Made by a program: the position numbers and the translations under genes. Shown in pieces: positions 27,842 to 60,853 of a stretch of 64,000 nt of DNA. Source of the DNA: Vermamoeba vermiformis (taxonomy: Eukaryota); contig JBEWZL010000011.1 in the NCBI GenBank assembly GCA_045837725.1, positions 682,001 through 746,000 of the forward strand, given 5' to 3'. Below the pieces are notes generated by a model, which searched no databases, was not told where the DNA came from, and worked only from the letters and a program-made list of their open reading frames with translations. Numbering within the stretch: position 1 is the stretch's first letter; each line of letters starts with the position of its first letter.

Positions 27842-30800
27842 ATGAGCGACACAACTCAACAACAAAATACAGTGCTCACGGCTGAAGAAGAGAGCCAATT
27901 AGCGCCCTCGTTGCGCGGCTACTCATTCAGCGGAGCGAATCAACGAGACAGTTTCGATGCGCTTGGCTTGGGAAGGAGAGATAAAACTAAAATTCAAGTC
28001 AGGGTACGTATATACGTTATTATAGGCTAAACTAACGTATAATGACGATAAATAAATACGTAAAATAAATAGAATAGCAATTGAATTAAATTTTTTTTTA
28101 TTGTAGGTTACGCTGCCAAATAGTACCGCTAAAGTTCTCGAAATTCCTCTTAAACATACAGTTGATCGTGTGAAGGTAATGCAAAATAAGACTGAAGCAA
28201 TTTAATTTTCAGATCACAAAAATATCAATAGAAATCAGATCAGAAACTATGCAAGGCGGGTATTAATATATTATTTAGGCTGCTGTATTTGCGGATGAGC
28301 CTTCATTGGCAGGAGAATCACATACTGATTATCAACTCGCTGTGACCGAGGTATTCCATCTGATCTGATCGCGTTTTATGTGAATCGATTAAATACTTAT
28401 ATTCAATAATATATAGAAGGAGCGATTGGAAGTAGAATTCATAAAATTAGCCGAGAGTCACGATTTAATTCGCCGAGCAGTCAATTTGGAACGGATGGTT
28501 GAAGTCCTTTTATTACCGAAAGAAACTACAGCAAAAACACCACGAAAGAATTTAGAGCGAAGGTAAGTCGCTAATGAATGAATTATCTGATTATGGACCA
28601 TGTATATTTGATACGATTTTTTTAAATTTTAATTTGTGGATCTCGCACGCTGACTTTATATTTCAATTGCAAATGAAATTTTGTGGAATAATAAAATTCC
28701 GCATACGGTAAAACGAGAAATTCGTTGCAAACAAAGTTGAATAATTATTACATGCATTGCCATCAGATCTGATTTTTCGTATTAAAATTCTATTACGTAG
28801 CTTTTCAACACAAAATGTCAATAAAAGCAAGTTGACGCGAATAGACTCGACGCACAGCCACTCGGGAAACGTCTCAAAGCTCAGCACGCAAATCAATAAT
28901 ATTGCACCGCTGCTCGAGGCGGCGAAGCCTCCGACGACAGCGAGCCCAGGCCACAAGCGGAATAACTCTCAAATGAGCGACAGCGAGGCCTCCGACATGA
29001 AGAGCAGCAGCGAGGAGGTCTCGTCGAAGAGCCAAGGCAGGAAAAAAAGTCACGACGACACGGTCTCGTCAGCTTCGTCGAGTCCAGAATTGGGCCGCAA
29101 GAAGTGGACACCGCCCGTCGATGGCGCGACAGGTCCTCAAGCATTCAGATTGACCGAGGACGACATTAAGCACTCCAAAAAGAGCCTCATCGGCAAACAA
29201 CGCGACGCCGTGACCAAAGAAGAAGGAGGAGGACGAGGACGACGCTCGAGCTCGATGATCGAACAACAGACCAGCGACGACGAACACGACAAGCACAAGA
29301 AGAAGAAGGACAAGAAAGAGAAAGAAAAGAAAGCCAAGGAGATTAAAGACAAAGACAAGGAGAAAGAGCGATCAAAATCGCCGATTTCGATCAGGAAGAT
29401 GTTGCGCAGTTCGAGCTCGAGTTCGATTGAACGCAAGGGCATCAAGAAGACCGCGAGCACCACGACAGTCACGACGAGTCCGACCCTCGCCGAAGAGCCA
29501 GACAAAAAGGCGCCGGCCTCAGACTCGCCCGACAATTCACCGAACGTCAAGCGACGCGTGCCGCAGATCGTGATGACACCGTCAACACCGCCAACCCTCA
29601 ACTTGTCCACGAATTCAGTGGCGCTTTCATCCCACTCGATCAACTCCATCACCAACGCACTCTCATTGGACAACACGCCGATCTCATCGCCGCACTCGTT
29701 CGACGTGAAAAAGTTCCAAAACAGCTCGGACTCGTTGGGGTCATCGTCCGAATTGCGAAAATCGGGCAGCGGAATGTCGGAGACAGGAGAGATCGAACTC
29801 GAAGTTGAAGACTTGAAGAGCGCTAATTTCATCACGCTCTCCATGAGCAGAAAGGGCACGATGAGAAATAACTTTGCCAATTCACGCGCACGCAGTAACT
29901 CTGTCGTCGCCTCACGTCCCGGCGGCGAGGTTTTGGCCAAACGAAAACCAACCACAGCTAGTAAGCCGCATCTTTATATCACTGTAGTACATTAATATTA
30001 ACGAATTGGTAATTTTGAAGATGGCGGCATCAAGCCTGAAGATTTTACCGCGTCATTTGAGCCCACGACGACTACACGCACGAGACGAGGTTCATTTTCA
30101 CTGCTCGAAGACCAACGATCGGCCATTAAAGACGGCGCAAGTGTAAGTGTCAAGTTGTTGCAATATTTATCCTCGGTGTACAAACTGACACATCGATGGG
30201 ACACGAAACTTTCCATAAAAGGAAAGCTAAATAATTGAATCACACAGGACGAAAAGAGCTTGCCGCCGCTGATGAAGTCGTGCAAGGGCTTTTGGGTCGA
30301 AGTGGCCAACAAACTGCTGCCGTACGACCAGCTCAACATGTCCATGCTCGAAGTCGAGAACTTGTCCAACGACGTGCTGTGGTACAAAGACTTCTTCGTC
30401 AATCACGAGCATCAGAACTACATTGGCATGGACGAGAACTTGGGGCCGTACATTGTCTCGGTCGTGCGTGAAGTCAACGCCAGCAATCAAAACGCCAAGT
30501 TGATCCGCGTCTTGTTGCGCACGAAGAAAGAAGACGAACGAAAGTGCATTCGAGAGAAGTTGATTAAGAACAAGAGCAAGTTGTTCAAGTGGGGTGGTCC
30601 TTCTATTCAAGATATTTTGAAGGCCGTGCGTCCGTCGTTGAACAAACAGAAGATCCGCATGGTCAAAGCACCTGAACTCGTCGAAGACTTGCAATTATTA
30701 GAAGAACGATTGGTACGTTATTACTCTTGGCGAGCACGTGATTTTTAACGTTATTTTACAGATGGTGAAGAGCTACAAGTTTGGAGTTTTGTTCTGCAAA

Positions 30801-35026: not shown

Positions 35027-36249
35027 TTATTGGGTTGTTGTGGTGGATTCGGTTGTCGTTGTAGATCCGCCATCCGGATTTGCACTCGGTTGTTGAGGAC
35101 TAGTTTCAACAGGTATATTATTATTATTATTATTACTAGCGCTATTATCGTTATTATTATTTGCAGCTGTAGTCTGATTTGCATCGCTTTTCTTCTCGTT
35201 GGTGCTGATGGAAATATTGGCATTGATGGACTGATTGATGATCGTTACGAGCCAATCGAGACCTTCCTCGAGACCCCAGCCCTTGAGACCTGAGCACTTG
35301 AATATCGCCCATTGTCTGTCGCGAATGTTCGAGAGACCTGTTTGGTGCAACATCCGGATCTTAGTACAACGAACAAAAAATATTTATACATTAAATATCA
35401 TCACAATAGTATTTATATATCGATATATATATTAGTATAGTAATAATAATGCCATATAGTACCTAAATCGGCGCTAATTGTCGCTACTGGCAGTGCGTTG
35501 GGCAGATCTTGTTTGTTTGCAAATACGAGCATTGGACAGTTCTTCAATTCATCCTCCTATCATTATTATATATAAACATCATAATAATCACACTAATATA
35601 ATAATTTTACTTGTAGTAGCTGCGCTAATTCGCTTTGAGTGATCCCGATCCGTTCAGTATCCGCAGTATCAACGATGAAAATAATCGCATCTGTGTGTTG
35701 ATAATAGCATCGCCAATAAGGTCTTATAATATGATTATTATATGGTCGATATTAAATGTAATTGCACCCCGTACCGAATGTTAGTTTGACCGCCCAGATC
35801 CCAAACTAAAAATTTCGTTAGAAAATTCGTATTATCATGGTATTATACACCTTATAATACTGATATATTTTTTCGATAATTACCTTTGAAATTTATATTT
35901 TTGTAAGCCACAGTTTCCAAATTGAATCCAACAGCTTCACGAAATCAAAATATAGGTTAGAAAATTGCCTAAAAAAACTATAATAATTATATCAATAATT
36001 ACTTGGTATTGTTTGAACGGTTTCGCCACTCGCCAATCGATATAAAATTGTTGTTTTACCAGCGGAATCCAACCCTGACGTCAGCAACGATTAAAATCGC
36101 GAAATACTATAAGATTATGTAGTATACCAACCTAACATTAATATTCTAACCTCTTTTTTGAGATTGAATAACGACGAAAAGAACGACAGCAGATTGCCTA
36201 CAAATCTGTCAGCAATTTGCTATTAATGCACGTGATAACACCTACCCAT
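35027..36249 (-). CDS. ARL1: ADP-ribosylation factor-like GTPase (ARL1-type) with low-complexity C-terminal tail
   Basis: MGN..., [46 protein letters not shown]; first coding exon is ATGG. Confidence 0.85.
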
Positions 36250-36440
36250 TGAATAAACAAACGATTTGCTATGTATGTGATATTATATACACTAGTGTTC
36301 GACAGATAAACTTATTTTAAAAACACAGAATCTTTTTCGTTCTTTTCTCTTGGAAGGACCAACACGACAATCTACATATATGTATTTGATCCATATATAT
36401 TTGTACTTATAAAACTAATATTAGAGCAGCTGAATTTTCA

Positions 36441-39079
36441 ATGCTTCGCGTTTGTTTATTTGGCCGCTTAATAACCGGAAGAACGGTGTTTCGCGCTAAG
36501 AAAAGTAAGCAAGATAAAAATATTAAATAATTCAATTATTATAGGCTTAATTTTACAATTTTTAGATCTTTCGCCGTGTTCATTTGGTGCATCAGTTTTG
36601 AAGAGGATGCAAATCCGAAAACCAACAATAGGAAGGACTATTTTGAACGTTGGAAGCAACCAAGGCGCTAAACTAGTATCATCAATACGTAATTATGTAC
36701 CGGAAAGGCCAATAGCAGGGTACGCACTTTCTTTTTGAAGTTGTAGATCTGATCTAAGTTTCAGCAATTCTGTCGGGAGCTTACGCGAAATACTAGCAGA
36801 GACGCTTCAAGGAGTAACATCATATCAGTATACTACAGGACCCGAATTGAGATTGCCGTACGATTCGGACTCGCAAATCCACAACGTTTTTCGCATTACC
36901 AATGCATTCGCCAATTCAATTGGTACGAGAGACAAGAAGCGAGAGCGGGCAGTAATAGTGACGGGCATTAGCGGCGCTGGAAAAACGCGATTTTTAATGG
37001 AACTTCCGGGGCTGATCTTGCAAGCCTGCGAGTATCCTGAACAGATCCGATCTGCATTGCTCTTGCGACCGCACGAAATACCGACCGACCAGCTGTTACA
37101 AGCAACATCCCCAGCTCCTCAACAATATGCACAACAGCGACCAGAGCCATCTGCTCCTTCAAATTCTTCGAAACATGGAGTACCAAATCCGGATGCAAAA
37201 TCGTTCGAGGATAAAGTGCAATCACTAAAAGCAGCGCTGAGCAAAAATTGCAAGAAAATCTACATTGAATGGCGACACAACGATCGAGTGTATTTAGACA
37301 GCATTGAACGCAATTGGCCTTCAAGCGTCAGATTAGGCTTGCGCGTAGCAGCGCAGTATTGGTTCCCGAACATCAATTTTGGAAAAATACGCGAGAGGAT
37401 GAGGACTAGTCCTTATTTGGAAAAATTCACTTTGTTAGAAGTGCTCAATGCCATGCACCGCGAAGACGAATCGATTTCAGCAGTGTACATTGCACTCGAT
37501 GAATTTCACACCACGACGCAGTTTCAAGTACCGTCAGAGCGCACAAACATTGGCGACGCGACTGAGATGTTGAGCTGTAGTTTGGCTCGTGCGCTAGTAT
37601 CCGCTGCACGCATGCACGGCAAGTGCTTTGTGTTCGGTGCAATTGCTGGCACGGCACTTTTAGCAGAGGATATTGTCGCAGACACGACGGACGACACTTT
37701 CGTACGCGCACCTATACAACGTCTCAGCTATCACAACGTTCAAAATATCATTCGCCGATCAGATTTCGACGGCACATCTGGCTCTGAATGGATTGCGCTC
37801 AAAGGCTTTGACGCATTAATTAAAATTGTCGCTGGCGTACCCCGAGCAGTTGAATTATTAGTGGAGTTGATCAAGGAGTATCAAATTCTACCTGCAAATA
37901 TCGATGTCGATCGGTGGAGCGCTTGGTTTTTAGCGAGGTACGAACAAAAGTTCAACGTTGCCGCTGTGTTGAACGAAAATAGTTCAAGAATTTGGTCTTT
38001 ATTGCTAGGTGTTGCCGGTTACAATGTAGCCTCTCTTAAAGTCATTGCGGGAACTCTCGATGCTCCATCCACTGTCGCTTCATTGGAGAAAGTTGGTTTT
38101 TTCTCTACCGTTGACAAACCAACGGGCAGTGACTGGGAAAAATGCTACAATGCTTGTCGACGCTTGCGCTCAATCACAGTGTTAGATGTTCCGCTTCCTC
38201 TTTTGTTAATAATGGTTCGTAAAAAGATCCAGATTAGCAGTCCGGATCCCGCTCGTCCATTCTCAGAGACTGAAGGTACGTACACATATATCGACTGTTC
38301 TATTTTACTAACTATTCTTTTGTAGCTACAGAGCTGGGGAACCAAGTGGCAGATCTGGCTTACTACATTAATCTCAGCTGGGATGAAAAGCTCCCCCTAA
38401 TTCATTTGTTATTCCGCTGGAATATTTTCAACTTTGCGGACAATAACGAGTACATTAGCGCTGCTGATTTGTTTGTTGGCGGTCTCTTCAGCCCAGAATT
38501 TGGCGCTAGACAGTTTGTAAAGGAACCGACGGTCATTGGGATCAATCGCAATCCTGTACAAGGCGTGTGTGCTACAATGGGCAAAAAAAAAGGGCGTTTT
38601 TCAACTGCCGGCGTTCAAAAAGTAACGGATTCGGTGAGTCAGATCGATTTTTAAAGTAATTTCGTACTAATATTATGATTATTTAGGTGGAATTGCACGG
38701 GTCAGTGCTCAAATTCAGCGACATGTCGTCACAAACTCGCGGAGTTGTCTTTGGCGGCACCGATTTGTTCGACAGTCACATCCGCTTGTGGATCAAAGAA
38801 GGACGTAAGAAGCGTCGAGCCATCATTTGGATTGATGCAAAACATACTGTTCCAGGCAGTAGTGAGCTGACATTGCGAGAAGTCCGTAAAATCATCAAAA
38901 AGCGCAAATTCTTGGAAGAGAACTTGCCGCAGTACGTGCACTTGGCGGTCATTTATTCCAATCGGGCGTACAACGGCGGAGTACCTCCAGATCCGAACAC
39001 TTGTGTCATAAGCAAAGATGGCATGTCGTTCTCGATGTCAACTCTGATGAATCGGTGGCTGTTAGGCGAGAACATTTAA
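36441..39079 (+). CDS. P-loop NTPase + C-terminal PD-(D/E)xK restriction-endonuclease-fold protein (Crinkler CR-NTPase/REase-like), 5 exons, N-terminal presequence
   Basis: Walker A GISGAGKT, Walker B YIALDEF, GVPRAVE, C-terminal FDSHIRL...IWIDAKHT...AVIYSN. All four introns splice in frame. Confidence 0.8.
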
Positions 39080-39234
39080 GTCATCATAAGCAATAAAAAT
39101 ACCGCAATTTAAAAATTAACAATATTTGTCGCTAATTTTGCAATGCAGACCCTGGTCAAATAACCCTTATATGGAATGAAGTGTGGAAACGTTAGGATTG
39201 CAATTCTTTGTTACTGAAGCCTGCTTTGTGTCTG

Positions 39235-42035
39235 TCAAACAGTCTTCCGTGGGCCTCTTATGATCTCGGTCAGGAACGGATGTTGCACTGCTTGTGTAGC
39301 GGAGAAGCGAACCGCCGGATCTGTTTCGAGCAACCATCTAAACAGATCCACTGCATAACAAGGATCAGTATTCGATAATATCAAGTCATTTTGTACTTAC
39401 CAGCGCTCGGCGTTGCCACGTGGGTTAATTTTCCTTCCTCGAGCCAATCAATCATCAATTTAATGTCGTCTTCTGTATTTAATTCAATATCGTACATCTA
39501 TATATGAATAATATTATTAAGATCTATATGATTTATAAGAGTTTCATACGTACCAATGACGCGCAGACTAACGCAGCAGAATAACTGTCGGATTTGACAG
39601 AGCCGTACCGTTTAGAGCGCCTCATGTCTTCGATGGTGAAGCAACACATTTCCTGCAGCTCAGGTGGCTTGTAATAATCGGTGCCGAAGAATATATCGAA
39701 CTCTTCTGCATCCTCGTTCATTGCAAACTAAAAATTTGTAAGCGAAATAAGAAACTTATTAGGATTGATTCAATCGGCCTTAATTTACCTCAAAGCCTGT
39801 TAACTTGTAGTTCTTTTTCTTGTCCATCATAATATTGCTTGGTTTGATGTCGCGATGCAGGTAGTTCCTTTTGTGGATGCGCGCCAATGACTATTCAAAA
39901 TGTTAGACGTGGCTACATCGTTACATTACTTACGTGCATAATATCTATAGTAATGTTTTGAAGCTCTTTTGCGCTATCGATGCGTTTAGGCAATGGATAA
40001 AGTCGTTCTAAGATCAAGTAGCCTAATGTACTGTTCTCGATCTGCCCCCACGTGTGCAACCATTCAATTCCCGGACCTAATATTATAACCAATCAATAAA
40101 ATATTATCGTTTCGAAACTTAATTTGAACTTTTGAAGCGAGATTCGGAAGACAAGATCCTGAACCAAAATTGTAGCATTACATACCTCTTAATTTTGCTA
40201 GTACCGCTGATTCTTTTTCAATACGACGCCACGGAGCTATTTTAATAATACCCACACCTTTGTCTTTACGACACTCGAATATTTTTACTTCGCCATTCTG
40301 CATCCGAAGAATTAGTTCCATGAAAAAACGATTAAATAACGAATGACTTACGTCTTTAATCAGGTCAATATGACTGAATCCATTGGTTATTAGTTTATCG
40401 CAGAACTGTTTTATATGCGCTGAATCTTCGACGGATGTAGCAGCTCGATCGTGTAACGTATCGACTGGTCTTAGGCCCAGCTTATTTTCTATACTAATAG
40501 GGTTCTTCTTATTCAAAGCTCCATTTTGAGTAGCATTGCTATGTGGTAGTATGACGTTAGGACTATGATTTTCTTTGTCGGCTTGATCCACATCCGCTGC
40601 TCGTTTAATAGACTCGATCTTGTTCGAATACGATTGCTTCTTCTCAACTTTATTAATAATACTCTCTTTAATGAACGGATGGTGCAGTGCTTGTGTTGCC
40701 GAGAAACGTACGGTCGGATCTTTTTCGAGTAACCATCGAAACAGATCCACTACAAAGCGTACAAGTTTAATAACAAGTAATAATAATAACGCGCGTTGAC
40801 CAAGTTTGACCGATTTTCACTTACCAGCACTAGGCGTGGCCACGTGTTCTAGTATTCGGTCGTCGAGCCAATCGCTTATCGTTTTAATGTCATTTATCGT
40901 GCCCAATTCGATATCGTACATCTATATAAGAATAGTATTAAGAGCTATATGATTTAAGATAGTTTCATACCAATGATGCGCAGACCAACGCAGCAGAATA
41001 AGTATCGGATTTGGCGGATCCATACCGTTTAGAGCGTCTCATGTCTTCGATGGTGAAGCAACACATTTCCTGCAGTTCAGGTGGCTTGTAAAAATCGGTG
41101 CCGAAGAATATATCGAACTCTTCTGCGTCCTCATGCATCGCAAACTAATAATTTGTAAGCGAAATTTAGTTTTATTAGTATTAATTTGTGAAGAGTTAGA
41201 AATACCTCAAAGTCTATTAGCTTTATGTGCTTATTCATGTCCATCATAATATTGCTCGGTTTGACGTCGCGATGCAGGTAGTTCCTTTTGTGGATGCGCG
41301 CCAACGCCTGGAGTTAAGGTTAATCATTACCATACCTTAAATAACTTTGTTCTTACGTCCATGATGCCCGCAGTAATATGTCGAAGCTCTTGTATGTTAT
41401 CGACGCGTTTCGGTAATGGATAGAGTCGTTCTAAGATCATGTAACCGAACTTGCTGTTCTCGATCTGGCCGCTCGTGTACAAACGTTCAACGCCTGGACC
41501 TAGCAACATCATTATTAATATAATGCAAGATTGCAATCCAGACTAAGATGGGCTTTAACTAACTTAGTAGCCAAGATCTGATGCTAAAGATCGTTTCGAC
41601 GAATATTCTCTACTCACGTACCTTGTAGTTGCGTTAATGCAAGAACCTCCTTTTCAACGCGCATCCATGGAGCCAATTTAATAGCATACAGCTCAGTCTC
41701 TTTGCAGCATTCGAAGATCTTGGCCTCACCGTGCTGTGGCCTCAATTAGAACAACAGGAAGCAATGCGATCTATGACGTACCTTTTTAATCAGCTTGATA
41801 TTATTAAAGCCATTGGCAACTAAAACATCGCGTAATTGCTTCTCGTGTGCTGAATCTTCTTCGATCAAAGCTGCATCTTCTGCTGTAATTAATCGTTCGT
41901 CATCTGTCTATTTTATTAATTATTAATCGGCTATTTAATAGCACTTAATACTTTGTTAATAGCTTGCCCATAATTTAAATTTATTCTGGCGGGATCTATG
42001 CAGTTCATTGCTTCCATTGTCATGACTGATTCCAT
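39235..42035 (-). CDS. Tandem two-domain atypical protein kinase (kinase + probable pseudokinase)
   Basis: Two near-identical modules: YAIK/HRDVKPSN/LIDFE/GTDFYKPPE and GIIK/HRDIKPSN/LTGFE/GTDYYKPPE. They are joined in frame by ORF 40178-40750. The start codon is tentative. Confidence 0.85.
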
Positions 42036-42456
42036 ACTTGCGCTACAATATCTAATAACATTAATTATTAATTTTGATCGTTTGGCGCGTGCTGAAGAAA
42101 GATTATAAGAAGTTTACCTCGATTTGTTAGATCTAGTAGAGCGTGTTTGCGTTTAATGCCAAGAATTTGCCTTAAAATTGCTTGACAATTATAACTTCGC
42201 TGCTTTGAATGGTTTGAAATCGGATCTACATTCAAAACTGAAAGTTGAACAAAACTTAATTTTTAGGTTTACCAGATCCGTCGGAAAAAAATACCTCGAC
42301 AAATCCTAGGATCAAATAGCGTTATTAAAGTATGCTCTCGGTGCGGCGTTGCAGCGCTCAAACGGAATTTTCAATGCTCTAAATTTGGCTGTTGGTTTTT
42401 GTGACAAACAGTTGCAATGTTATTTTTTTCTCGTGCAGAACTACAGCAGCAACACG

Positions 42457-45898
<3,442 letters not shown>

Positions 45899-46280
45899 GC
45901 GGATTTGCTACAGCATCCAAAACTCAAAACCCTTATTTAATTTAATTTATGCCTGTAAAGTGTAGAATATTCTTGTTTGTTATTATTTAATACCATTATT
46001 ATCATTGTAGACGCTAGTGTGCGAACTCTGCGGCAAAAAAATAAAACCTTTGCATTTTGACGTCAGATTTGCTTTCAAACTCTCATTAAACGCGTAAATA
46101 ATGTCATAAATACTTAATACTGGTCTTAATTAGCCTATTTTACATCTTTAGCGGTGAAATACAAAGTTTTCAACCGGATCTTGTTCGTTTAATTTTTTTG
46201 AGACGAAGAACAGGAGAGATTTGGATTTATAATCTCCTAATTAGCTTCGTCTTGTATATACACCAATCTATATATTTACG

Positions 46281-48405
46281 ATGACCGATCGTCGATATAT
46301 AGCTGATATTGCGAACAGTTTAATACCCGAAACGGATGAAGAAGCAATCTGGATAGATCACAGCAGAAATAAGCCCAAAAAGAACAAAAAACGGTCAAAT
46401 TTATTTGATTTTACAGTGGGCACTGGCGGCATATTTATTTGCTACTTAATCTACGGTATCTTGCAGGAAACGATGTAAGATTATAATTTAATTTTAAAAA
46501 TTATCAAAATAATAATAATACGCGATCCCTATTGCTAACTCGCTGTATATGACACTAAGTACGATAAATATAATAATTTTAATTATTATTAACGCGGATG
46601 TAGCACGGGCACAAAACGAGGAGAAACAGGCGAACAATTTCAATCTGCAACGTTTTTAATGACAGTACAATGTATTGCTAATACTATATTTGCTGCTATA
46701 CGTAAGTATTACAAACGTACGATAATTAACTTGTAATTGAATCAAGATCACCAAATCCGAAAAAATTAACCGTTATAAATTTAAATATTATTCTGAACGC
46801 GATCTTCGCTTTATAACTTCGTATACTACAATATCAAATATATTATGATTATTTTGGTATTTTACAAGTAATTTTTTTCTGATTTTTGTACTGGATGTAG
46901 TTATGCGCGGTAAAGAATGGACGAGCAGTGTGCCGCAACGCGATTACATTACGACTGCCTTTTCATATCTCGGAGGCATGGCTGCATCGTATCTAGCACT
47001 CGATTACATTAATTTTCCGACGATTACCTTGGCCAAGAGTTGCAAAATGATTCCAGTCATGATCACCGGATCCATCATGCATGGGTACGTAACTTTCATA
47101 ATATAGACATATTATACAATATAATATTACGAACGGTTACCTCGTTTATGATAATATCGAAAAATTAAAATATTCAAATCCGGATCTTGAACAAAAAGCT
47201 TTGCTTTTATTTATTATATCGCCGTATTAGGAAATTTATTCTACCAATATTTATATTTTCGGTTATTAAACCTTTGGCACGATAACTATAATTACTTATA
47301 ATTTTGATTTTACTACGCGTTGTTCTTATTTCGATGGTTCGTGTACTAATTAGGCAATTATTTCCAAATATAGCAAAAAGTATTCACGCGTGGAGTACGC
47401 ACGAATGGCACTGATAGCAGTCGGCGTGACGTTTTTCATGTTGAAACGATTGGATTTTTATCCGACGAGCGAACTCATGTCCGACATTTCCTCGTCGATC
47501 GATCTATCAGTCCTAATCGGGATTAGTTTGACAGTACTGTCACTCGCATTTGACGGCTACACTGGCTCCACTCAAGACACCTTCATTGCGCAGCACAAAC
47601 CGTCCACGCAACAGCTCATGTTTTACGTAAGTCACGCTGAACTCTACAAAAATTATCAAGTTTATGTTAATATTATCGTGATTAATACCAAATAAGGAAA
47701 TATCATTGAATCGACCCATACAAATTTAACTTCAAAATTCTTTCGTACAAACTACGTTTTTTTCACGCGTCATTCATAGACTCGTAATAATATTACTACT
47801 AATATGGACAATATTATTTTGGATCGAGGTCATAGTTTGACACGTGTCAAAGAAAAATACTTTTCGCGGTGCAAATTGGATCCGGATTTTATACAAAACT
47901 AACGTGTTAATTTGTTCGTATAGACGAACTTATGGTCCGTCGTGATCCTATTGGTCAATTCGCTGTTCATTCAAACCAGCACCATGTCGTACTCCATCGA
48001 CTTTTTGGCGCGACATCCGAGCGTCATTTTAGAACTCATGCTGTTTTGCGTTGTGTCGTGTCTGGGTCAAATATTTGTATTTTTTACCGTCAATCATTTA
48101 GGTAAGTCGGAAACACCTCCATTTTACCAAATAAGGAAAACGAAAGACCGATCCTTTATCAGATTCAGATCCGCTTTCCATACCAAATTAATTCTCAATT
48201 TAACACTTTTATAGGCGCACTTACATTGAGCGTGATCACCACTACGCGCAAGTTCTTCACAATTTTAATGTCCGTGCTGCTGTTCGACCATGAGCTGAAG
48301 TGGCACCAACACTTCGGCATGCTGTTGGTCTTTGCAGCGCTTGGCTGGGAGATTTACATGAGATACCACAGCAAAAAAGACAAAAAACAGCAAAAAATAC
48401 ATTAA
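46281..48405 (+). CDS. SLC35B1: Nucleotide-sugar transporter, SLC35B1/UAA family
   Basis: GGIFICYLIYGILQE, ALDYINFPTITLAKSCKMIPVM, LAFDGYTGSTQD, GQIFVF, ITTTRKFFTIL. Confidence 0.88.
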
Positions 48406-48559
48406 AATGTACATTAATTACTAAAAACGAAAACATACTTCCTTGTCTGTCAGCACTTGGTTAGGCTTGCAAAGTTTTACCATGCAGCTGGTTTGTACAA
48501 GCACCACTTTGTAGTATCTACATGTAGTCTGTTTTTTCTTTCAAGGCCAGACTGGAGAA

Positions 48560-51221
48560 TCAGGACTTGTCAAAGAACTGGTGTTGCAGTATTTGCGATG
48601 CTGAATATCGCATGTGTGGTGATGGATGCAACAATTTGCAAATCATATCGACTGGTGCAAAAAGTAATGGTTAGCATTATCTTAGACTAATTACAGTTGT
48701 ACATACGTGCCAATTCTGTCATGACACCAGTGATTTTTCCCTCATTGATCCACTCAAGCATGTCTTCAACATCACCTTCCCATCGCAAATTGATGCCATA
48801 CATCTGTTACATTGTATTAATACCAACATTTAAGCAACATCCTTGCCATACCATTGATGCAATTACCAATCCAAGAGCATAGCTGTCGGCTTTGTCTGAT
48901 CCTTGGATGTGCCCTTGAATCAACTTTTGTGCACTGTAACCATGTGCATAGCATGTATCGAATAGCTCTGGGGGCTTGTACATTGCCGTGCCATATAAGG
49001 TTATAAAGTCTGTGGCTGCCACATCCATTGCACACTTAAGATTGTTATTAAAACAGTTTGTCATATCAAATCATTACCTCAAAGTCAATCAATCTTATTT
49101 GATTATCTTTGGTCATCATGATATTGCTATGCTTAATGTCTCTGTGGATCCAATTCTTTTTATGAATAAAAGCAAGGGCCTAAATATTTATAGGTAAGAA
49201 AGTACACCCTACACATTCAAAATACTTACCTCAAGCATTTGCCTTGATATGACTCTACTTTCTTCAGTTGATTTAAATGCTTCAGGCAAGTTGTACAATC
49301 GTTCAAGAACTATGTAGCCCAACTTCTCATGTCCAGGTATTTCACCTTGTGCATAAATGCGTACAATGCCATTATGTTCTACAACAAATTGTGTTAAATC
49401 AACCTTTAGAATGAGCACCTACTTTTGTTGAATACTTTCAAGGCAGCAACTTCATATTGAATTTGAAGCAGAGAGTTGATTTTAAATGCAAATAGATTCG
49501 TTCCTCCTTTCACTTCAAACACAGTAGAAAGTCCATACTGAAACTATTAATCAAGGGTTGGACATTGAAAACAATACTTACTTGATGCACAAATTTGATA
49601 TCAGTGTAGCCTCTCTTTTCCAGATCAGCACAAAATTCTTGAATTTGCAACAACAATTTTGTTTGTTTGACTTCATCTTTGCTTTCAGTGCATGAGTTGC
49701 TTTTGTCATTGGTATTGTTGCTTGGATCAGATGCATTGAGGCCAATAATGCCATCAAGAGTTTGATTCAGTGAAGTCATTTCTGATTCTGTCAATTTGTT
49801 CTCTTCTGCAAGCTTACGAATCCACTTGATTAAAGTGTTGTAATTGGGTGTGAGCTTCTTGAATACTTCTTGCAAGTATGCAGCCAGTCTGTAGACTATT
49901 GCACCGCAATGGAAAGCAGCACTCAAACTGTCAAGCTGTCCAGCCCAAACAGTGTGTACTTCTTTTTGATTATTTCCATTGAGATCTTTAGTCATGACTT
50001 GTAGAGACCAATCATAGCCATGAGAATAAATTCCAAAGGTGAATTCTGGTGGTTCAACCCAAACCAATTCATGAATTTGTTGTATGCAATTCATTTCACC
50101 GGCAAGTTTTGAGCTGATAACAATTAATTTTCTTCAACACTGCAAAAGCATACTTACATGTCTTGAGCATCATCTGACCCTGTGAATTCAGCTACAACAG
50201 TAGGCAATAAAACTTCATTTGTGCCCAAGCAGACTCCAAAGTCAAGCAATAACTCCAAGCATGTACAAAGATCTTCCATATTTGGCAATAGTGATTCGAC
50301 GTAACTGTCACCACCAACCTTCTTAACTATGAAAAGCCCCATAACAGCATCTGGTCTTAGATCACTGAGCTTTGGATTGACATTCACTGGTGAGAACAAC
50401 TGCTTATCTGGCCCACAAAAATAGCCAAAAGATTGTGCTAATAACGCGTTTGCAAACAGTGATACGTGTGGCTCGCTTAATTTTTCGTTACCACGCCAAA
50501 TTGTGTTGTAGATGGTTCCAAGAGACATAAATAGTGCATCACGATGACAATTAGAGGTCTCTAGAGCAAAAGATTCTTTTGTGCCCATTGCGAGCAAATC
50601 TGGCGAGACTTTCAGCAACAGATCGCCATCGTGGAACTTAATTAACCCGTCAGAACGCTGCAACAAAGATGAGAATATGGTTACTAATAAACGTAGATGC
50701 CTAACGCTTACCAATTGAAAGATCTTGCGAATCTGCTCGGGCACAACGACATCCGTAGAAAGTATTTGCCAAGGGAAATGTGGCATTGCTCGAATAGAAC
50801 TTGCCAAGGAATTTTGCGATCGTGCAAAAAGCTCTATAACATTATCTGCTTTAATAAAACCTTCTGAAACACGCTCGGATGTCGCAATTTCATTTTGCTG
50901 GCGAGTGTTTTGTTCTATACTCGCCTAAATATATATAACAATTAGCATCCTTCATAATAGTAATATTTAGTAATAAATGGACTTTCATTCAAATGAACTG
51001 GCGTCCGAAAAAGCCTTCTTCGTATACTTTTTGGCTCTATGAAGTAATAATTTAAATATACTATACCAAGAAATATGTTGCAACTTATTGCTTCATTTAC
51101 CTTTATTCGGCGTGATTGCAATGTGAGGCAGAACGTCCAAGATTTGATCTGTCGCATCCCGTTGTAGAGAATTCAGTACGGAATTGGTGTTAAAAGCAAG
51201 CTCATAATTATTCTCTTCCAT
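48560..51221 (-). CDS. REase-fold domain + C-terminal atypical 'DFE' protein kinase (Crinkler-like architecture); 5' exons uncertain
   Basis: RPDAVMG...VVAEFT...KLAGEM...FGIYSHGYDW, then FAFK, GYIVLERLY, HRDIKHSN, LIDFE, GTAMYKPPE, ADSYALG, RYSASQILQHQFF. The kinase exons splice in frame. Confidence 0.78.
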
Positions 51222-51684
51222 ATATTCGTTTCAGGTCTTATTGAAGGCTAATTACCAAACAATTGTTTAGTTTGCGTTTTTAGGGCCGCTTCTAGTCATT
51301 TGTGCACGTAACTATTCGAACCGCTTTACTAATAATATAAATAAATTAATCTGCAGCAAAAAGTCAACAAAGATGTTGTGCACGATCAGATTCGATTCAA
51401 AAAAGACCGCCAAAATTTGAATAGCGTGCAAATTCGGGCCTAACAAATTGTTTTGCCTGCTTTTCAACTCATAGCACCATGGCCGAGAACAATAACAAGG
51501 CTAAGGTGTCGGTAATTAAATTATCTGCCAGTTGACCAAGTAAGAACGAATAATCCAAGTCAAATCAGATCGGTTTGCCAGTTTGAGCATTTTTATTGAG
51601 ATATTTATTAAGGTAGCATATGGACATACCAATCCGATTTAGAGACGAATTAAGAACCAGCCACGCCAAATCCGGGCGAAAGTA

Positions 51685-53211
51685 CTGATAAGTCGGAAGA
51701 AATTGACCAAAAAAATTCTTAAATTTCGTTTTGCATAATTTCAGTTTTTCTCGCCTTTGTGGCATTCAATAATGCCAAGCAAACTGAAACGACGTGGCTC
51801 GCCAGGCCAGCCGTACAAAAATGAAGTTGTGCAGGCAGCGCTGCGACTCTTACGGGAGCGGGAGAGGGCCCCTAAGAAAAGGGGTTTGACTTACCGCGCT
51901 ATTGCAAATCGTGTGGGCGTTTGGTCTCACGCTACGATTCACAATTGGGCCAATCGTGATATGAGAGTTCGCGAACAGAAGAAACGGATCCTTAACAGAG
52001 GCCACAAAAGATTGCTCAGTCGCCGAGAAGAACGTATTATTGCAGGATACACGATTTTGAGGTCTATTAATAGCCTCAGCGCCACAACGAGAGATGTGCG
52101 ACTTTTTCTACTAGAAGGCTTCGGAATTCGTGCCAAACCCACATGGTTGAAGGAATGGGCCTCTCGAAACCATTTATCATGGAAGCGCCCTCAAAGACGA
52201 ACATTTGGCCGTCCTCTTCGTGACCAAGAAGAAAAATTAGTGAAATTTCTAGAAGAGATCAGATCTTTGAACAAAGCTCCACGTCAGATTGCCTGTGTGG
52301 ATAAAGTATATTTTCAGAGTCAAGCAGTTGCAGGAAGGCAATTATCAATGGTGGGTGCGTAAGTTGAACCAAGAATTTCTGAATCGTAAATGAAGTTTTC
52401 GCTAATCGCACTTGAAATGGAAATTTCAGCGGCACTCCGAAGCTGAACGCAATTAAACGGTCTTTCACTGACTGTTTATATGTCATGCTTGTGGCTGATG
52501 GTTCCGTGGGGCCATTTTATTATTCAACGAAAGACAAAAACTTTGCCGAGCCTAAATTTAGTCATGATTTTGGTTTCGTAGATGTGCAGAGCAAAGGACG
52601 AGGATTTGGCGAAGAGTCGTTCCTTAAATATCTTCAACTGGTGCTTGATCAAAATTACCTTCAATCTGGCGACGTATTGCTGCTTGATAACGAGAAATCT
52701 TTCAGTACGAAAAAAGTCACGGATCTCTTAACCAAAAAAGGAATAATTGTCAAGCATTTCCCGGTCAGCCTTGGCTCTATCGTTGATCCGTGCGACAATT
52801 CGTTTAATGCGGAACTCAAAGAATCGGTTTATGAAGAAATGGCCTTCACCACCAACTCTTCAACACAAAATAAGATGTCAATAGTGGAGAAATGCTTTTG
52901 GCGGATCTCGGAACAATCAATCGAAAATTACTTCAAACATTGCGGAATTATTGGACACAAGTATCGCGAACAGGTTCGTCGAATAATACGAGAAGGAATG
53001 ATTCCCTCTTCGCAATACACCTCACTGCATCGAGACCAAATTAGTCAATTCCTAAAATGGGCACGAGCGAATAAATTTAACGTCGCGCAGTTCGAAACGA
53101 AACACCTGCCAAGGGTAACGAAGGAAAATAAATAAATAACTGAAATTAATCTCTATTGCAAGTCAAATGATTAATAAATAAATTTTTGGTCAATTTCTTC
53201 CGACTTATCAG
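51685..53211 (+). mobile_element. pogo-like IS630/Tc1/mariner DNA transposon, 1527 bp, 29-bp TIRs, TA target-site duplication
   Basis: CTGATAAGTCGGAAGAAATTGACCAAAAA at 51685-51713 with an exact reverse complement at 53183-53211. TA flanks both ends (51683-84 and 53212-13). Confidence 0.96.
51772..53135 (+). CDS. Transposase (~430 aa; HTH + CENP-B-type HTH + DD35D), one intron at 52359-52429
   Basis: Removing the 71-nt GTAAGT...TTTCAG intron fuses the two ORFs in frame. Candidate triad is CVD, LLDN and DPCD, with 35 residues between the last two Asp. Confidence 0.9.
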
Positions 53212-53589
53212 TAATTTACCAAAATCATTTTGCTGAAGTTTTTTCATAAAATAGGTGCGGAGTAAGGTCAAACCATCAAATAATAATATTTGACAATAGT
53301 TACTTCTTCCTTTATCGAGCAACCGGTTGCTTGGGCTTTCCTAAAACTCATCGCGTATCTGAAGAGTATTGAGCAGGTTGTTTAGTATCAATTGCTACGC
53401 CGAATAGGTGCAAGTCACTAGCGAATGGCGATTAGTGTTAGCGGAAGTATTAGTGTTGGTGCGTGGTATTAGTAACGGTTACTAAAAAAAATTTATTGTG
53501 CTCGCGTATTTTTATTGGACAACAGAACAGCTTGTATATTATTATCAACCTTATTTGTATATTAATGACTTCAATCTTGCCATTATAAA

Positions 53590-56500
53590 ATGGAACTTAA
53601 TGGCAAGGAGCGTAGGGAGCATGCTAACGCTGTAACATCCTTCAACAGAGATCGAGATGAAAAAGACGACATTGAGAAGGAAAAAAATAATAAATACAAT
53701 ACCAATCGAAGACATAAGACCTTGTTTAGCGAAGAGCGATTTGAAACAAATGCTGTATTATTGCCGAGTCAAAAACGAAAAGTTGTTCAATGGCGCATGA
53801 AAGATAGGGTAAATATTCGTATTTATAAGTGAAATATTATTTTTAAATTAAATTGATTGTATTGCACGTGTATTTATTCAATTAAGCTCGAATAGTATTA
53901 CATACAAAATTATTTGATTATTTATTTGTAAATCCGCTGCGTACATGCTTGTTCAACGTACTAACTATGTATTCAAACAGATTAAAAATGCTGATCAGGT
54001 AACTATATTATTTACATCTCGCACTAAGAAGATTTTTCTTGAATCCACTTTTCAATTTGAAATTTGCTACTTTCTGTGCTATTTGCAAATTCTTAGTTAA
54101 ATATATTTTTATTAAATCGTGTTAAAGATGAAGACGGTGAGCGTTGCTCTGGTTATGTGCTTGAATATTGGTGTAGATCCTCCAGATGTGATCAAGACGA
54201 CGCCTTGTGCTCGCTTGGAATGTTGGGTTGGTATGTGCATTTTCACTACGCTAATACTCACTACCACTACTCACGCTATTTCCCATTTTCAGACCCCACT
54301 AGCATGCCTGCACCAAAAGCACTCGACACGATCGGTAAAACTCTACAAATGCAATACGAACGGTGGCAGCCAAGAGTAAGTTACCAACATATCACAATAT
54401 ATCAGTTATAACCTTTGATGTGATGTATCGAGGCGCCAAAAGCCTAGAAAGCCCAATCTAAAAATTGTTCGCGTTCGATCTGCGACTGATCTGTTGACCT
54501 TACAGGCCAAATACAAGTTGTGTCTCGATCCCACCGTTGAAGACGTGAAGCGACTATGTGTCGGGCTGCGACGTAATGCCAAAGAAGAGCGAGTTCTGTT
54601 CCATTACAACGGGCATGGAGTACCCAAACCAACCAACAACGGTGAACTTTGGGTGTTCAATAAGAACTTCACACAATACATTCCGTGCTCTATTTACGAG
54701 CTCCAGTCGTGGCTCGGCACGCCTTCAATCTACGTGTTCGATTCATCGGCAGCTGGCTTGATTGTCAAGTGGTTCAACAAGTTCATTGATCAACGACAAG
54801 GCGAGTACGAGGTACGTAGTATTTTAGTGTCAAGGCAGCTATCACTCACTAATTCCTTGTCAATAGCGTAACGCCAAAGTTCAAGTCAACCCTCAAGCTG
54901 TCAAACAACTGCGAGACTACATTTTGCTCGCGGCTTGTGGCACCAATGAAACGTTGCCCACGAACCCTGACTTGCCTGCAGATATTTTCACAGCTTGCTT
55001 GACCACGCCTATTAAGATTGCCTTGCGTTGGTTCTGCTCTCAAACTATTATCAACGGTGTCAAAGCCGAGCTAGTCGACAAGATCCCCGGTCGATTGAAC
55101 GATCGTCGTACTCCGTTGGGTGAATTGAACTGGATCTTCACCGCAATCACTGATACCATTGCTTGGAATACTTTGCCTAAACGTAAGTTAGACATTTTGG
55201 ACACATGACTCGATCCACGTTCTGACATTCTAGAAGCGCTCTTCCAAAAGCTGTTCCGTCAAGATCTGTTAGTGGCCAGTTTGTTCCGTAACTTCTTGCT
55301 CGCTGAAAGAATCATGAGATCATGCAAGTGCACGCCGATTTCTTATCCCAAGCTGCCGCCGACATACAACCATCCCATGTGGTACGTGTTAGACTGTCTT
55401 ATTTCGTAGCCGAACGCGACCTGACCTTTCATAATAGGCAAGCATGGGACTTGGCAGCTGATCAGTGCTTGTCTCAGCTCTCTAAATTGATTTCAGACCC
55501 GTCATACGAGTTCAAAGTACGTGACTTCACGCGTCCGTTATCAAAATTACGCTCGTTCTAACGATTGTTTAGCACTCAACGTTCTTCACTGAACAACTGA
55601 CGGCCTTTGAAGTGTGGCTCGAGTTCGGCACTGAAGAAAAGAAGCCGCCAGAGCAATTGCCTATCGTGCTTCAGGTCTTGTTGAGTCAACAGCACAGACT
55701 TCGCGCACTCGTTTTGTTAGGCAAATTTTTGGACCTCGGATATTGGGCCGTCAATCAGGTACGTCACGACAACTACGGTTAGGAAAGAGGCAACCCTCCA
55801 TTCCCATAACTTGTTCGGATGTGATCTATTCGCGGACTATCGATCTGCGACGTAGAATTTCTTCCGAAATATTATGCGTCTTACTAGGAGTGATACATAG
55901 TTTTTCCCTGACGTATTGCTTATTCCAACGGCGCTAGATCTCCTCTTATTGGATCTTTTTTTGCCGACTCCTGGTTCTAATTATTTTTGCTAGGCTCTAT
56001 CTGTGGGTATTTTCCCTTACGTATTGAAGCTGCTACAAAGCCCTGCAGTTGAGTTGCGCGAGATTTTGGTCTTCATTTGGGCTAAGATTTTGGCTCTTGA
56101 CAAGGTAACGTGATTGTCGACGCTAGATCAAGATCTGGTTTTTATTGACGTTATTTTATCCAGTCTTGCCAATTGGATCTGATCAAGGACGGTGGCCAAC
56201 ACTACTTCATCAATGTTCTGGGCAATACTAAAGTGCCTCCTGCTCAGCGCACTCAAGCCGCGTTCATTCTGAGCGTCATTTCCAACAACTGCCGTCCAGG
56301 CCAACAAGCTTGTTTGAATGCTCGTATGTTGCAGATCTGCTTGGGTCAGCTTAACGAACAAGACTCGATGTTGCGTCGTTGGGTCGTTTTCGCCTTGGCC
56401 AAGTTCTGGGAGAACTACGAAGAAGCCAAGTGGGCAGCCATCAAAGAGGGTGCGCACGAGAAGTTGTGCAGTTTGCTGCAAGATCCCGTGCCCGAAGTGC

Positions 56501-59147: not shown

Positions 59148-60853
59148 TCAAAAGTTAGCGTTGAACAAGAAAGAGCCCATTTCCAAGATAGCCTTGCGAT
59201 AAATGCCGCCTCCAGTCACGATTCGCGGATCAATTTCCTTCTGCTTTAAGTCCATTGTTACCATCAACCAATCCAGTAACATTCCGGCACCGAGATTTTT
59301 GGGTGGGGTGTTGGTTCGTTTCATTTGATGAAAAGCGAACAGACTTGCGAGCGTCTTATCAAATCGAGCGTGATAATCGCGGCCCGGAAAGTTGATGAAC
59401 TTGAAAATGTTGAGCCAAATTTCCTGCGGGAAGATGTCCAAGGCTTGATCACTTGATGCAATAGTCAGCATTGCTTTCTGAGTTATTGCGTGGTTTTGTT
59501 CTTGCTCTTTCTTGTTCTCTTGAAGCAATTTAATGAGTTCAGGACATTCGACGTCGTCTACTGGACTGAGATCGGTGAGCGCTTTGTTGCTTGCGAGGAG
59601 GTCGATCATGTCGTCCTTGACTAGGTCTGTCTCCAATTCATCTGTCCAGAATTGCAGTGAGTGCACCGAGTCGTTGTTTTTCAGTGCCTCTCCGAGAAGT
59701 CGTCCTGCTTCTTCGAGGTGATACATGTAGGCATCATCACCCTCGTTCTCGTCGTAGCGTTTGGTCAGGTTGACTTCGGTCAGGCTTCTATTGACCTTGA
59801 GAATGTCTGCAACGGCTTGAACTTCCTCGACAGCGACCGTTGATATCGCCAAGCTGCGCATTCTCGTGTTCGTTTTCATGACTTCAGTGAACGCTTGCAA
59901 GCCTTTCTCATCAAACCCGGCGACGGAAAGCATGAGATCCGTCAACGTCGGGTTGACCTTCAACAAATTGGCAACGGGCAGATAAGGGTTGGTGATGTGC
60001 TTGCTAGTGATGTGGAGCGTGTTCACCGAGGTGTTCTTGGCAAGGGCGGCCATCAACTTGCTGCAGTGCTCGTCGTTCATGCCACAATCCTGCAGTTCGA
60101 GCTTCACCAGAGATTTGTTGAGTGTGAGCGCCTCGCTCAGCTCTTGAAAGGCTTTATTCGACAGACCAGCGCCGTATGTCTTGCAATCGGCGAAGATCAA
60201 GTCTTTCAATGAAGTATTGGTCTTCAACGCCTTGGCAATCTCCTCGCCTATGATGCCGTCGGCGAGTTTGAGGTGCAGCATAGTGATGTGATTCAGAGAA
60301 TTGCAAAACAGTTGCAGCGAGTCGTCAGAGCCGAAGGTGAATTCGCCGCCGAGCTTTAGAACGAAGAATTTCTTGCCAGCTTGCAACGCGTTGCAGAGGT
60401 ACTTCATACCAGATTCGTGGATGCTGGACAGAGTCAAAACCATCAGAGTTCTGTTGTCCTTCATAGCTCTGGCAAAGAGACGAGCAAAGCTACTAGAGAG
60501 TTCTCCCTCGAGCTGAAGAGAGACCATGGCCTTGTTTGTTTTCAGGATGCCGCAGAAGTAGCGCCAGTCAGCCTTCGAGAGTTCGGCGCAATTAACAATG
60601 ACTGCAGATTCTTTCCATTCGGCTTCTCTGTTCTTGATCTTAGCGACGACCTAAATATTGAAGCAGTTAGAAGCGAGATCGAGTTGCTGGATTCGTTCTA
60701 TTTTTGACATTTCGAGGTAAAATTGCAAAATTAAGTTATTGATAATACGTTGAAAATTTAATGCTCAATATACGAAACATAGTCAAATTTGTCCTGCAAC
60801 ATCGAATTTCCTCAGATTTAGAATTTGTAGCGCCTTACGTTTCGTGGGTTCAT
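59148..60853 (-). CDS. RNI-like leucine-rich repeat protein with C-terminal F-box-like motif
   Basis: MNPRN|VVAKIK... splices into ORF 59148-60527. It has repeated LxxNxSLxxLxL units and C-terminal IFPQEIWLNIFKFI. Confidence 0.85.

Follow-up and report, generated by a model that had tools for sequence, protein, structure and literature searches.

Do three unusual genes that lie close together in Vermamoeba vermiformis act as one defence system, or are they separate genes that have settled in the same place? The question is raised by a stretch of 64,000 nucleotides (assembly GCA_045837725.1, contig JBEWZL010000011.1, positions 682,001 to 746,000 of the forward strand; the whole stretch is called the window below), in which an NTPase-nuclease gene (gene 1), a tandem kinase gene (gene 2) and a second gene of the same kinase family (gene 3) were found. 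Together with a transposon they occupied the interval between ARL1 and Raptor, among conserved housekeeping genes. The initial annotation had proposed that they might form a lineage-specific sensor/kinase/nuclease system. The answer preferred here, at about even confidence, is that genes 1-3 are intact, intron-bearing and lineage-restricted accessory genes made of conflict-type modules in a permissive interval, and that they probably do not make up one co-evolved system. Separate accessory genes, among them two local paralogues, were held to be more likely than a defence system. The interval was laid out as follows, with positions counted from the first base of the window.

36607..39079, + strand: gene 1, NTPase-winged-helix-REase (restriction endonuclease-like) protein, 774 amino acids (hand model; full-length collinear homologue P0002)
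39235..42035, - strand: gene 2, tandem kinase and predicted pseudokinase, 659 amino acids, 14 exons (Pfam Pkinase, hand model)
42457..46065, + strand: NDR/LATS-type AGC kinase, housekeeping (Pfam Pkinase, 1.6e-33)
46281..48405, + strand: UAA/SLC35B-type nucleotide-sugar transporter, housekeeping (Pfam UAA, 2.8e-10)
48560..50924, - strand: gene 3, N-terminal region of about 430 amino acids followed by a kinase of the gene 2 family (eight-exon model)
51685..53211, + strand: Tc1/mariner-pogo-type DNA transposon of about 1.5 kb (inverted repeats, TA flanks, DDE_1)

The description of gene 1 as an NTPase-REase, made in the initial annotation, was borne out by Walker motifs, by fold matches to ORC and STAND (signal transduction ATPases with numerous domains) proteins, and by a REase-like strand order with a D...D-x-K motif. 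The gene was modelled from an ATG at 36607 to a TAA at 39077-39079 (+ strand; exons 36607-36719, 36765-38275, 38326-38633 and 38687-39079). Its first intron is in frame, and acceptors at 36747 and 36759 would keep the frame as well as the one at 36765; in the close relative P0001 the stretch matching this intron is open. The two parts that define the protein were encoded by the second and the last exons.

36765..38275, + strand: gene 1 exon 2, AAA+/STAND-like P-loop NTPase with helical/winged-helix modules, 503 amino acids
38687..39079, + strand: gene 1 exon 4, predicted PD-(D/E)xK (REase-like) nuclease core (AlphaFold2 model, VIA, motif)

Exon 2 harbored Walker A (GISGAGKT) and Walker B (YIALDEF) motifs, for which the family consensus reads G.SG.GKTR and LHIA.DE.Q, and its Pfam matches were all sub-threshold (AAA_16 at 17.1 bits, cut-off 32.6; nSTAND1 at 14.2 bits, cut-off 27.1; nSTAND_NTPase5). 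The homologue P0002 was modelled by AlphaFold2 (AF2) with a 28-row family alignment, which gave a pLDDT of 72.5 (mostly above 85 in the NTPase part) and a pTM of 0.76. Foldseek returned 141 PDB matches of this model at E<=1e-3, headed by ORC1/Cdc6, NLRPs, NOD2, NRC4 and archaeal ATPase_2 proteins. VIA aligned it with PAB2304 (2qen) at Z 12.7 (305 residues aligned, rmsd 4.3), with archaeal Orc/Cdc6 proteins at Z 12.3-12.6 (12.6 being 1w5s, archaeal Orc2), with the ZAR1 resistosome at Z 12.2, with Apaf-1, Dark and CED-4 at Z 11-12, with TnsC at 11.6 and with BrxC at 11.4. The scores were tied across these fold relatives, with ORC/Cdc6, ATPase_2, TnsC and the group of Apaf-1, CED-4 and NLR (nucleotide-binding leucine-rich repeat) proteins ranging over Z 10.7-12.7. 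Because of the Foldseek and VIA matches, the N-terminal two thirds of gene 1 is, on the modelled fold of its homologue, placed among the AAA+ NTPases around ORC/Cdc6 and STAND, and includes their helical and winged-helix modules.

The C-terminal columns of the family alignment held at least 90 residues in eight rows and the whole domain in five (gene 1 of the window, P0002, P0013, P0019 and P0021). Common to these five were a conserved acidic residue within a helix, a DLF.G stretch, an Asp, and a D-x-K about 20 residues further on; the first Asp was kept in all five sequences and D-x-K in four, P0019 having D-Q-T. Modelled by AF2 from the last exon alone (130 amino acids, 5-row alignment; pLDDT 72, pTM 0.66), the domain displayed the order strand-strand-helix-strand (E30-38, E41-53, H63-79, E83-91), with an Asp immediately ahead of strand 30-38 and D-A-K closing strand 41-53. 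The wide VIA search aligned this model with AF1548 (1y88) at Z 6.0 (80 residues, rmsd 2.8), NucS at 5.6 and PaqCI at 5.2, and with the N-terminal region of Avs3 at Z 4.3, at most 6.0 and so modest against the VIA caution line of Z 8. Among the 50 VIA rows listed, 20 were nucleases by title (restriction/nicking endonucleases, Can1/Can2/Card1, NucS, McrBC, Bax1). The modelled fold on its own was suggestive of a nuclease; since the conserved D...D-x-K on the expected strands adds to these fold matches, the C-terminus of gene 1 was accepted as a predicted PD-(D/E)xK nuclease. Likeness of fold also ties gene 1 to prokaryotic Avs proteins, BrxC-type ATPases and Tn7 TnsC, at the scores given above. 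Unlike the prokaryotic STAND/AAA+ nucleases, gene 1 is eukaryotic and carries introns, has its NTPase first and its nuclease last, and had nothing in PADLOC or NCBIfam for the nuclease at E<=0.01.

The gene 1 family was small: in 1,835,955,588 representatives, HMMER recovered 25 proteins at E<=1e-3, of which 15 reached 1e-10 and two reached 1e-30. P0002 (772 amino acids) was 40% identical to gene 1 and collinear with it from end to end, and P0001, an ORF-style (open reading frame) call that stops at the intron, was 90-92% identical. P0001 was also the sole match in a word-index search with the NTPase exon, a weak search in that the collection holds ORF-style calls for relatives. None of the 24 other family members showed a kinase or Crinkler domain in a Pfam scan (E<=0.01), and eight of them gave weak P-loop matches, all under the cut-off. 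No repeat-type sensor domain was found in gene 1. Its N-terminus is a short basic stretch with no ubiquitin-like (Ubl) domain, and the matching residues 1-40 of P0002 were disordered in the model. Acidic residues (Asp/Glu) were lacking from residues 1-32 of gene 1 and 1-45 of P0002, which contain 5 and 8 Arg/Lys, respectively, and P0001 was alike; judged from their residues, the N-termini of gene 1 and P0002 look like a mitochondrial presequence. The N-termini of other family members were quite different, P0021 for example beginning with a Cys/His-rich stretch.

The architecture of gene 1 invites comparison with Crinkler (CR) proteins. According to section 11 of the review PMC5289972, which covers Zhang et al. 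2016, over a quarter of CR C-termini are of the NTPase+HTH (helix-turn-helix)+REase type and about one in six are REase+kinase; toxicity is ascribed to the nuclease and a regulating role to the NTPase or kinase; headers are diverse and include alpha-helical domains; and the modules have their origin in prokaryotic proteins linked to transposons. That section agrees with the earlier statement that REase, NTPase and kinase modules recur in Crinkler-type toxins. Likened by architecture, gene 1 has the domain order of the first class (P-loop NTPase, helical/winged-helix, PD-(D/E)xK), and it differs from CR effectors in having no recognisable header and a family of 25 representatives. The Crinkler header PF20147, a profile that covers recognisable headers only, was absent from the window exons tested (E<=0.1) and from the 24 homologues (E<=0.01). 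In the Atlas, the top clusters for gene 1 were uncharacterised ones of Mucoromycota and Basidiomycota (0.94-0.97); a mitochondrial mS29/DAP3 cluster scored 0.90 and a Crinkler-family cluster (Mucoromycota, PF20147 in 45% of members) 0.89 at rank 25, all of these being leads only.

Gene 2 lies tail-to-tail with gene 1, and the tandem kinase-pseudokinase with stop codons about 155 bp apart that had been described there was recovered in the gene model: 155 nt were measured between the TAA of gene 1 and the stop of gene 2 (39235-39237), and the second domain has lost the DFG Asp. The two domains were placed as follows.

about 41907-40660, - strand: gene 2, domain 1
about 40420-39235, - strand: gene 2, domain 2

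The domains were 72% identical to each other and repeated the same exon lengths exactly (112, 143, 102, 174 and 97 nt). The HRD exon matched Pfam Pkinase at 8.1e-11 (42.2 bits, cut-off 31.7). Domain 1 retained the beta3 Lys, the alphaC Glu, HRDVKPSN and the Asp of D-F-E (IDFE); domain 2 kept the remaining kinase motifs and had Gly in place of the DFG Asp (TGFE), and is therefore a predicted pseudokinase. The GxGxxG loop was absent from all three kinase domains of the locus, each of which has a single Gly there (HGEAKIF, NGEVKIF, YGLSTVF). Nucleotide identity between the halves of gene 2 was 65-91%, highest (87-91%) in exons 5-6 and 65-78% elsewhere (41307-40971 against 39890-39554), and the intron after exon 6 was alike as well (43 of 49 aligned bases, 88%). 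Because identity peaks in exons 5-6 and the next intron, this stretch is likely a gene-conversion tract, as far as the alignment of the halves can tell. With two kinase-like domains per chain, one of them a predicted pseudokinase, gene 2 has the layout of the plant tandem kinase-pseudokinase (TKP) class, a resemblance of layout only.

Gene 3 had been described as a REase-fold gene with a kinase of the same family, and the two halves of that description fared differently. The kinase half held: it was 37-38% identical to both domains of gene 2, its introns had the same phases as theirs, and its exons were of nearly the same length (115, 149, 102, 183 and 97 nt); on these three grounds genes 2 and 3 are read as paralogues from their sequences. 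The gene 3 kinase retained the beta3 Lys, the alphaC Glu, the HRD...N loop and the DFG Asp as D-F-E. The REase half stays putative, as a sequence pattern for which profile searches were empty: the N-terminal region of about 430 residues carried RPD...VVAEFTG (PD...E-F-T, of the E-x-T type), with a 44-nt intron splitting the putative core. No match to this region was found in Pfam, NCBIfam or PADLOC; exons A and B gave chance-level rows or none against PDB sequences; exon A gave helical-repeat rows only in the Atlas, with low recognition (1106), the first 150 or so residues looking helical there; and hhalign compared the region with the gene 1 nuclease family at a probability of 0.7%. Likened by architecture to the CRN8-type REase+kinase class, gene 3 similarly ends a longer protein with an RD-type kinase, CRN8 being an RD kinase in the excerpt of PMC3426532, and it differs in lacking a header and in having a PD...E-x-T pattern as its only sign of a REase.

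The eight-exon model of gene 3 comprised 678 open codons (at least 632 amino acids from the first in-frame Met, at 50786), with introns of 43-55 nt that were all GT..AG. A candidate extra 5' exon starting with an ATG was seen at 51157, and exon A contained a candidate in-frame intron of 54 nt (50711-50658, GTAAGC...TTGCAG). Gene 3 and the transporter gene are convergent like genes 1 and 2, with about 154 nt between their stops (48406-48559), and the 3' ends may overlap in both pairs.

In the RNA runs X21 (200 reads) and X23 (318 reads), which carry the same species label as the window and in which most reads were only 90-95% alike, depth was 1-10 over ARL1, NDR, the transporter and the Raptor side, zero in every bin over genes 1-3, and nil over the transposon save for 0.06 in the bin just upstream. 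RNA runs under the species label of the source differed by 5-10% in housekeeping exons (35800-54000), and the label seems to cover clearly diverged lineages. GC content at third codon positions (GC3) was 0.466, 0.476 and 0.371 in genes 1, 2 and 3, respectively, and 0.51-0.73 in all 12 neighbouring ORFs tested; the low values fit weakly expressed accessory genes. As a sign of foreign origin low GC3 was set aside, since it fits low expression equally well.

In the water metagenome X5, contigs 93-95% alike were found on gene 2 (40911-41246, 41678-42038) and gene 3 (48604-49030), and the 3' part of gene 1 was covered too; the genes are therefore present in a close relative, and the contigs, at 300-430 nt, are too short for linkage between them. 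Run X7, under another organism label and guessed to be RNA, contained a contig of 287 nt that was about 92% alike to the NTPase of gene 1 (37521-37807), and its NDR contig was about 99% alike; from sequence identity, this suggests that the 287-nt contig stems from a gene 1 paralogue or a divergent allele, perhaps that represented by P0001. Alignment searches found no relatives of the gene 1 NTPase or of the kinase in JGI metagenome contigs or IMG/VR viral contigs, and tblastn with all three proteins found no further copies within the window.

Taken as separate genes, the three would work and have arisen as follows. Gene 1 would most likely be a nucleotide-gated DNA endonuclease, in which the NTPase and the winged-helix part would bind both nucleotide and DNA, form oligomers and allow the C-terminal PD-DxK nuclease to act; because it has no recognisable header, it probably acts inside the cell that produces it. 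Genes 2 and 3 are local paralogues of an atypical RD-type kinase without a glycine-rich loop, and gene 2 would then have been duplicated internally into an active-looking domain and a DFG-less pseudokinase. Since the exon lengths and phases are the same, local duplication is enough by itself to explain the proximity of genes 2 and 3. We infer the enzymatic activities of the three proteins and the gating mechanism, and we likewise infer a lack of functional coupling among the genes.

Whether the neighbours cooperate was weighed against several other readings. It is unlikely that gene 2 (perhaps also gene 3) acts as the sensor of an invader or effector and switches on gene 1, which would oligomerise and degrade DNA. 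Excerpts of two preprints (bioRxiv 10.1101/2024.08.30.610185 and 10.1101/2024.08.30.610287) describe wheat tandem kinases working with NLR partners, and the convergent neighbourhood of genes 1 and 2 at 155 nt, the kinase-pseudokinase layout of gene 2, the ties of the gene 1 NTPase fold with NLR resistosomes and Apaf-1/CED-4, and the alignment of its nuclease model with Avs3 all point the same way. The likeness to WTK3-WTN1 and Sr62TK, as those excerpts present them, is one of layout only, in that a kinase-pseudokinase adjoins a STAND-like NTPase gene, and the NTPase of gene 1 carries a nuclease, not leucine-rich repeats (LRRs). Fusion evidence was none, with no kinase domain in the 24 NTPase homologues, gene 1 is without a repeat-type sensor domain, and adjacency is weak ground when the genome is compact and its genes mostly stand a few hundred bases apart. 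For a joint sensor/kinase/nuclease system in general, four points weigh against it or are neutral: the absence of kinase and Crinkler domains from the 24 homologues, the lack of homology between the gene 3 N-terminus and the nuclease family of gene 1, the sufficiency of local duplication for the proximity of genes 2 and 3, and the zero depth over genes 1-3 in the two RNA runs of a diverged strain. The fullest version of this idea is quite unlikely: a linked immune pair in a non-plant eukaryote, with a kinase-pseudokinase sensor or decoy, a headless Crinkler-type AAA+/STAND-winged-helix-REase executor that degrades DNA, and a second kinase paralogue nearby with its own N-terminal effector or sensor domain. 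We would also give a low probability to an offensive role, in which genes 1 and 3 are CR effectors delivered into other cells through headers unseen by current profiles. In the section of PMC5289972 cited above, NTPase+HTH+REase (the architecture of gene 1) and REase+kinase (the putative one of gene 3) head the list of CR C-termini, and headers are diverse; the kinases of the locus are of the RD type, as is that of CRN8; the Crinkler-family cluster appeared in the Atlas, as a lead; and the start of gene 3 looks helical there at low recognition. Set against these are a Pfam Crinkler profile that matched none of the window exons tested and none of the homologues, an N-terminus of gene 1 that is short, basic and not Ubl, with disorder at the matching residues of P0002, a gene 1 family that is unexpanded among the representatives, and a gene 3 REase that is only putative.

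Two further explanations were considered. A lineage-specific nuclease for maintenance of organellar (mitochondrial) DNA, unrelated to conflict, is improbable for gene 1, though the basic N-termini of gene 1, P0002 and P0001 are free of acidic residues, P0002 aligns collinearly with gene 1 from end to end at 40% identity, as a constrained orthologue would, and the mS29/DAP3 cluster is a lead in the same direction. The presequence likeness was read by eye from the residues alone, the N-termini of other family members differ (with the Cys/His-rich start of P0021), and low GC3 and a lack of RNA reads would be odd for a housekeeping gene. That genes 1-3 are cargo or remnants of mobile elements inserting at a hotspot is very doubtful. 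An intact, TA-flanked transposon does lie 760 bp away from gene 3, 409 nt of this element were 100% identical in the water metagenome where the pieces on genes 2 and 3 were 93-95% alike, the NTPase fold is tied with Tn7-type TnsC, and CR C-terminal modules are said in the cited section of PMC5289972 to stem from prokaryotic transposon proteins; genes 1-3 themselves were flanked by no terminal repeats, target duplications or transposase, carry host-type spliceosomal introns of 41-122 nt, and show no GC break. The reading as separate accessory genes is preferred, and several observations weigh against it. The two commonest CR-type architectures, or at any rate an NTPase-REase and an X-kinase, lie within 14.5 kb, with genes 1 and 2 convergent at 155 nt, which would be unlikely by chance if both families are small in the genome; the tight convergent spacing and a GC3 below that of every neighbouring ORF tested also favour a special status of the locus. 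The nuclease part of gene 1 had no Foldseek match at E<=1e-3 (weak rows included XisH, Bax1, DdmD, BbvCI and NucS) in addition to its modest VIA scores. In word-index searches against longer proteins, which are blind to spliced and ORF-fragment predictions, kinase exon 6 had no candidate words in common and exon A of gene 3 had no relatives. The silence of genes 1-3 in X21 and X23 is weak evidence, as the strain is diverged at 90-95% and depth is 1-10; it may mean non-expression, absence or divergence.

Most knowledge of Crinkler-type NTPase-REase and REase-kinase modules concerns toxin heads secreted by pathogens of plants and animals, and little study has gone into what the modules do within the organisms that encode them. 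The locus offers a small and tractable header-less NTPase-winged-helix-REase family (25 representatives), one member of which stands beside a kinase-pseudokinase, and it raises the questions of whether such modules serve as cell-autonomous nucleases (in immunity, addiction or organelle DNA processing) and whether the tandem-kinase plus STAND-NTPase logic of cereals is older and wider than plants. A linked immune pair, if true, would parallel both the wheat tandem-kinase/NLR pairs and the bacterial Avs nucleases, and would suggest that cell-autonomous defence was the origin, or a later re-use, of Crinkler toxin modules. If the genes are unlinked, the locus is still a clean case of accessory genes settling among conserved housekeeping genes. 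A literature search found no paper that joins Crinkler-type, pseudokinase and STAND elements in one such locus.

The transposon beside gene 3 was as intact as first described. Its inverted repeats of 35 nt (51679-51713 and 53183-53217) were 97% complementary, TA stood on both flanks (51683-84 and 53212-13), and its transposase of 430 amino acids (51772-52358 + 52430-53135) was open after removal of a 71-nt intron (52359-52429). The second transposase exon matched Pfam DDE_1 at 6.8e-6 (26.2 bits, cut-off 22), and helix-turn-helix matches were weak. By its sequence the element is read as an intact and young transposon of the Tc1/mariner-pogo type: it shares with that group the inverted repeats, the TA flanks and a DDE_1 transposase with an N-terminal HTH, and differs in that its transposase gene holds a spliceosomal intron. 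The piece that was 100% identical in X5 spanned 51731-52139, and 21 of the 60 X5 contigs were at least 99% identical to the window; a near-identical strain may also be present there.

Between genes 2 and 3 only the NDR kinase and the UAA-family (SLC35B-type) transporter were found, which agrees with the earlier statement that nothing but NDR and SLC35B1 interrupts the unusual genes. The best PDB match of the NDR kinase was STK38 (2e-53), Cbk1 following at 2.5e-50; its splicing was visible as GT..AG joints in RNA reads, with a spliced contig of 1665 nt in run X7. The transporter had low RNA depth in X21 and X23.

The window as a whole is gene-dense and eukaryotic, and its introns are short and of the GT..AG type. 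Pfam matches to six-frame ORFs gave the following order.

First part: LRR protein, fatty-acid desaturase, PARN/CAF1, Mre11, Noc2, class IV aminotransferase
Next: Rap-GAP, TP_methylase-type gene, Arf/ARL GTPase, the interval of genes 1-3, Raptor and, further on, P450

Three long open frames were without a Pfam match at 1e-5 (5375-6745, + strand, 457 amino acids; 28745-29992, + strand, 416 amino acids; 59151-60650, - strand, 500 amino acids), so unnamed genes are not rare in the window. Positions 1-2000 stood apart in composition, with a GC content of 0.577 and a GC skew of -0.18, the usual GC elsewhere being 0.35-0.50.

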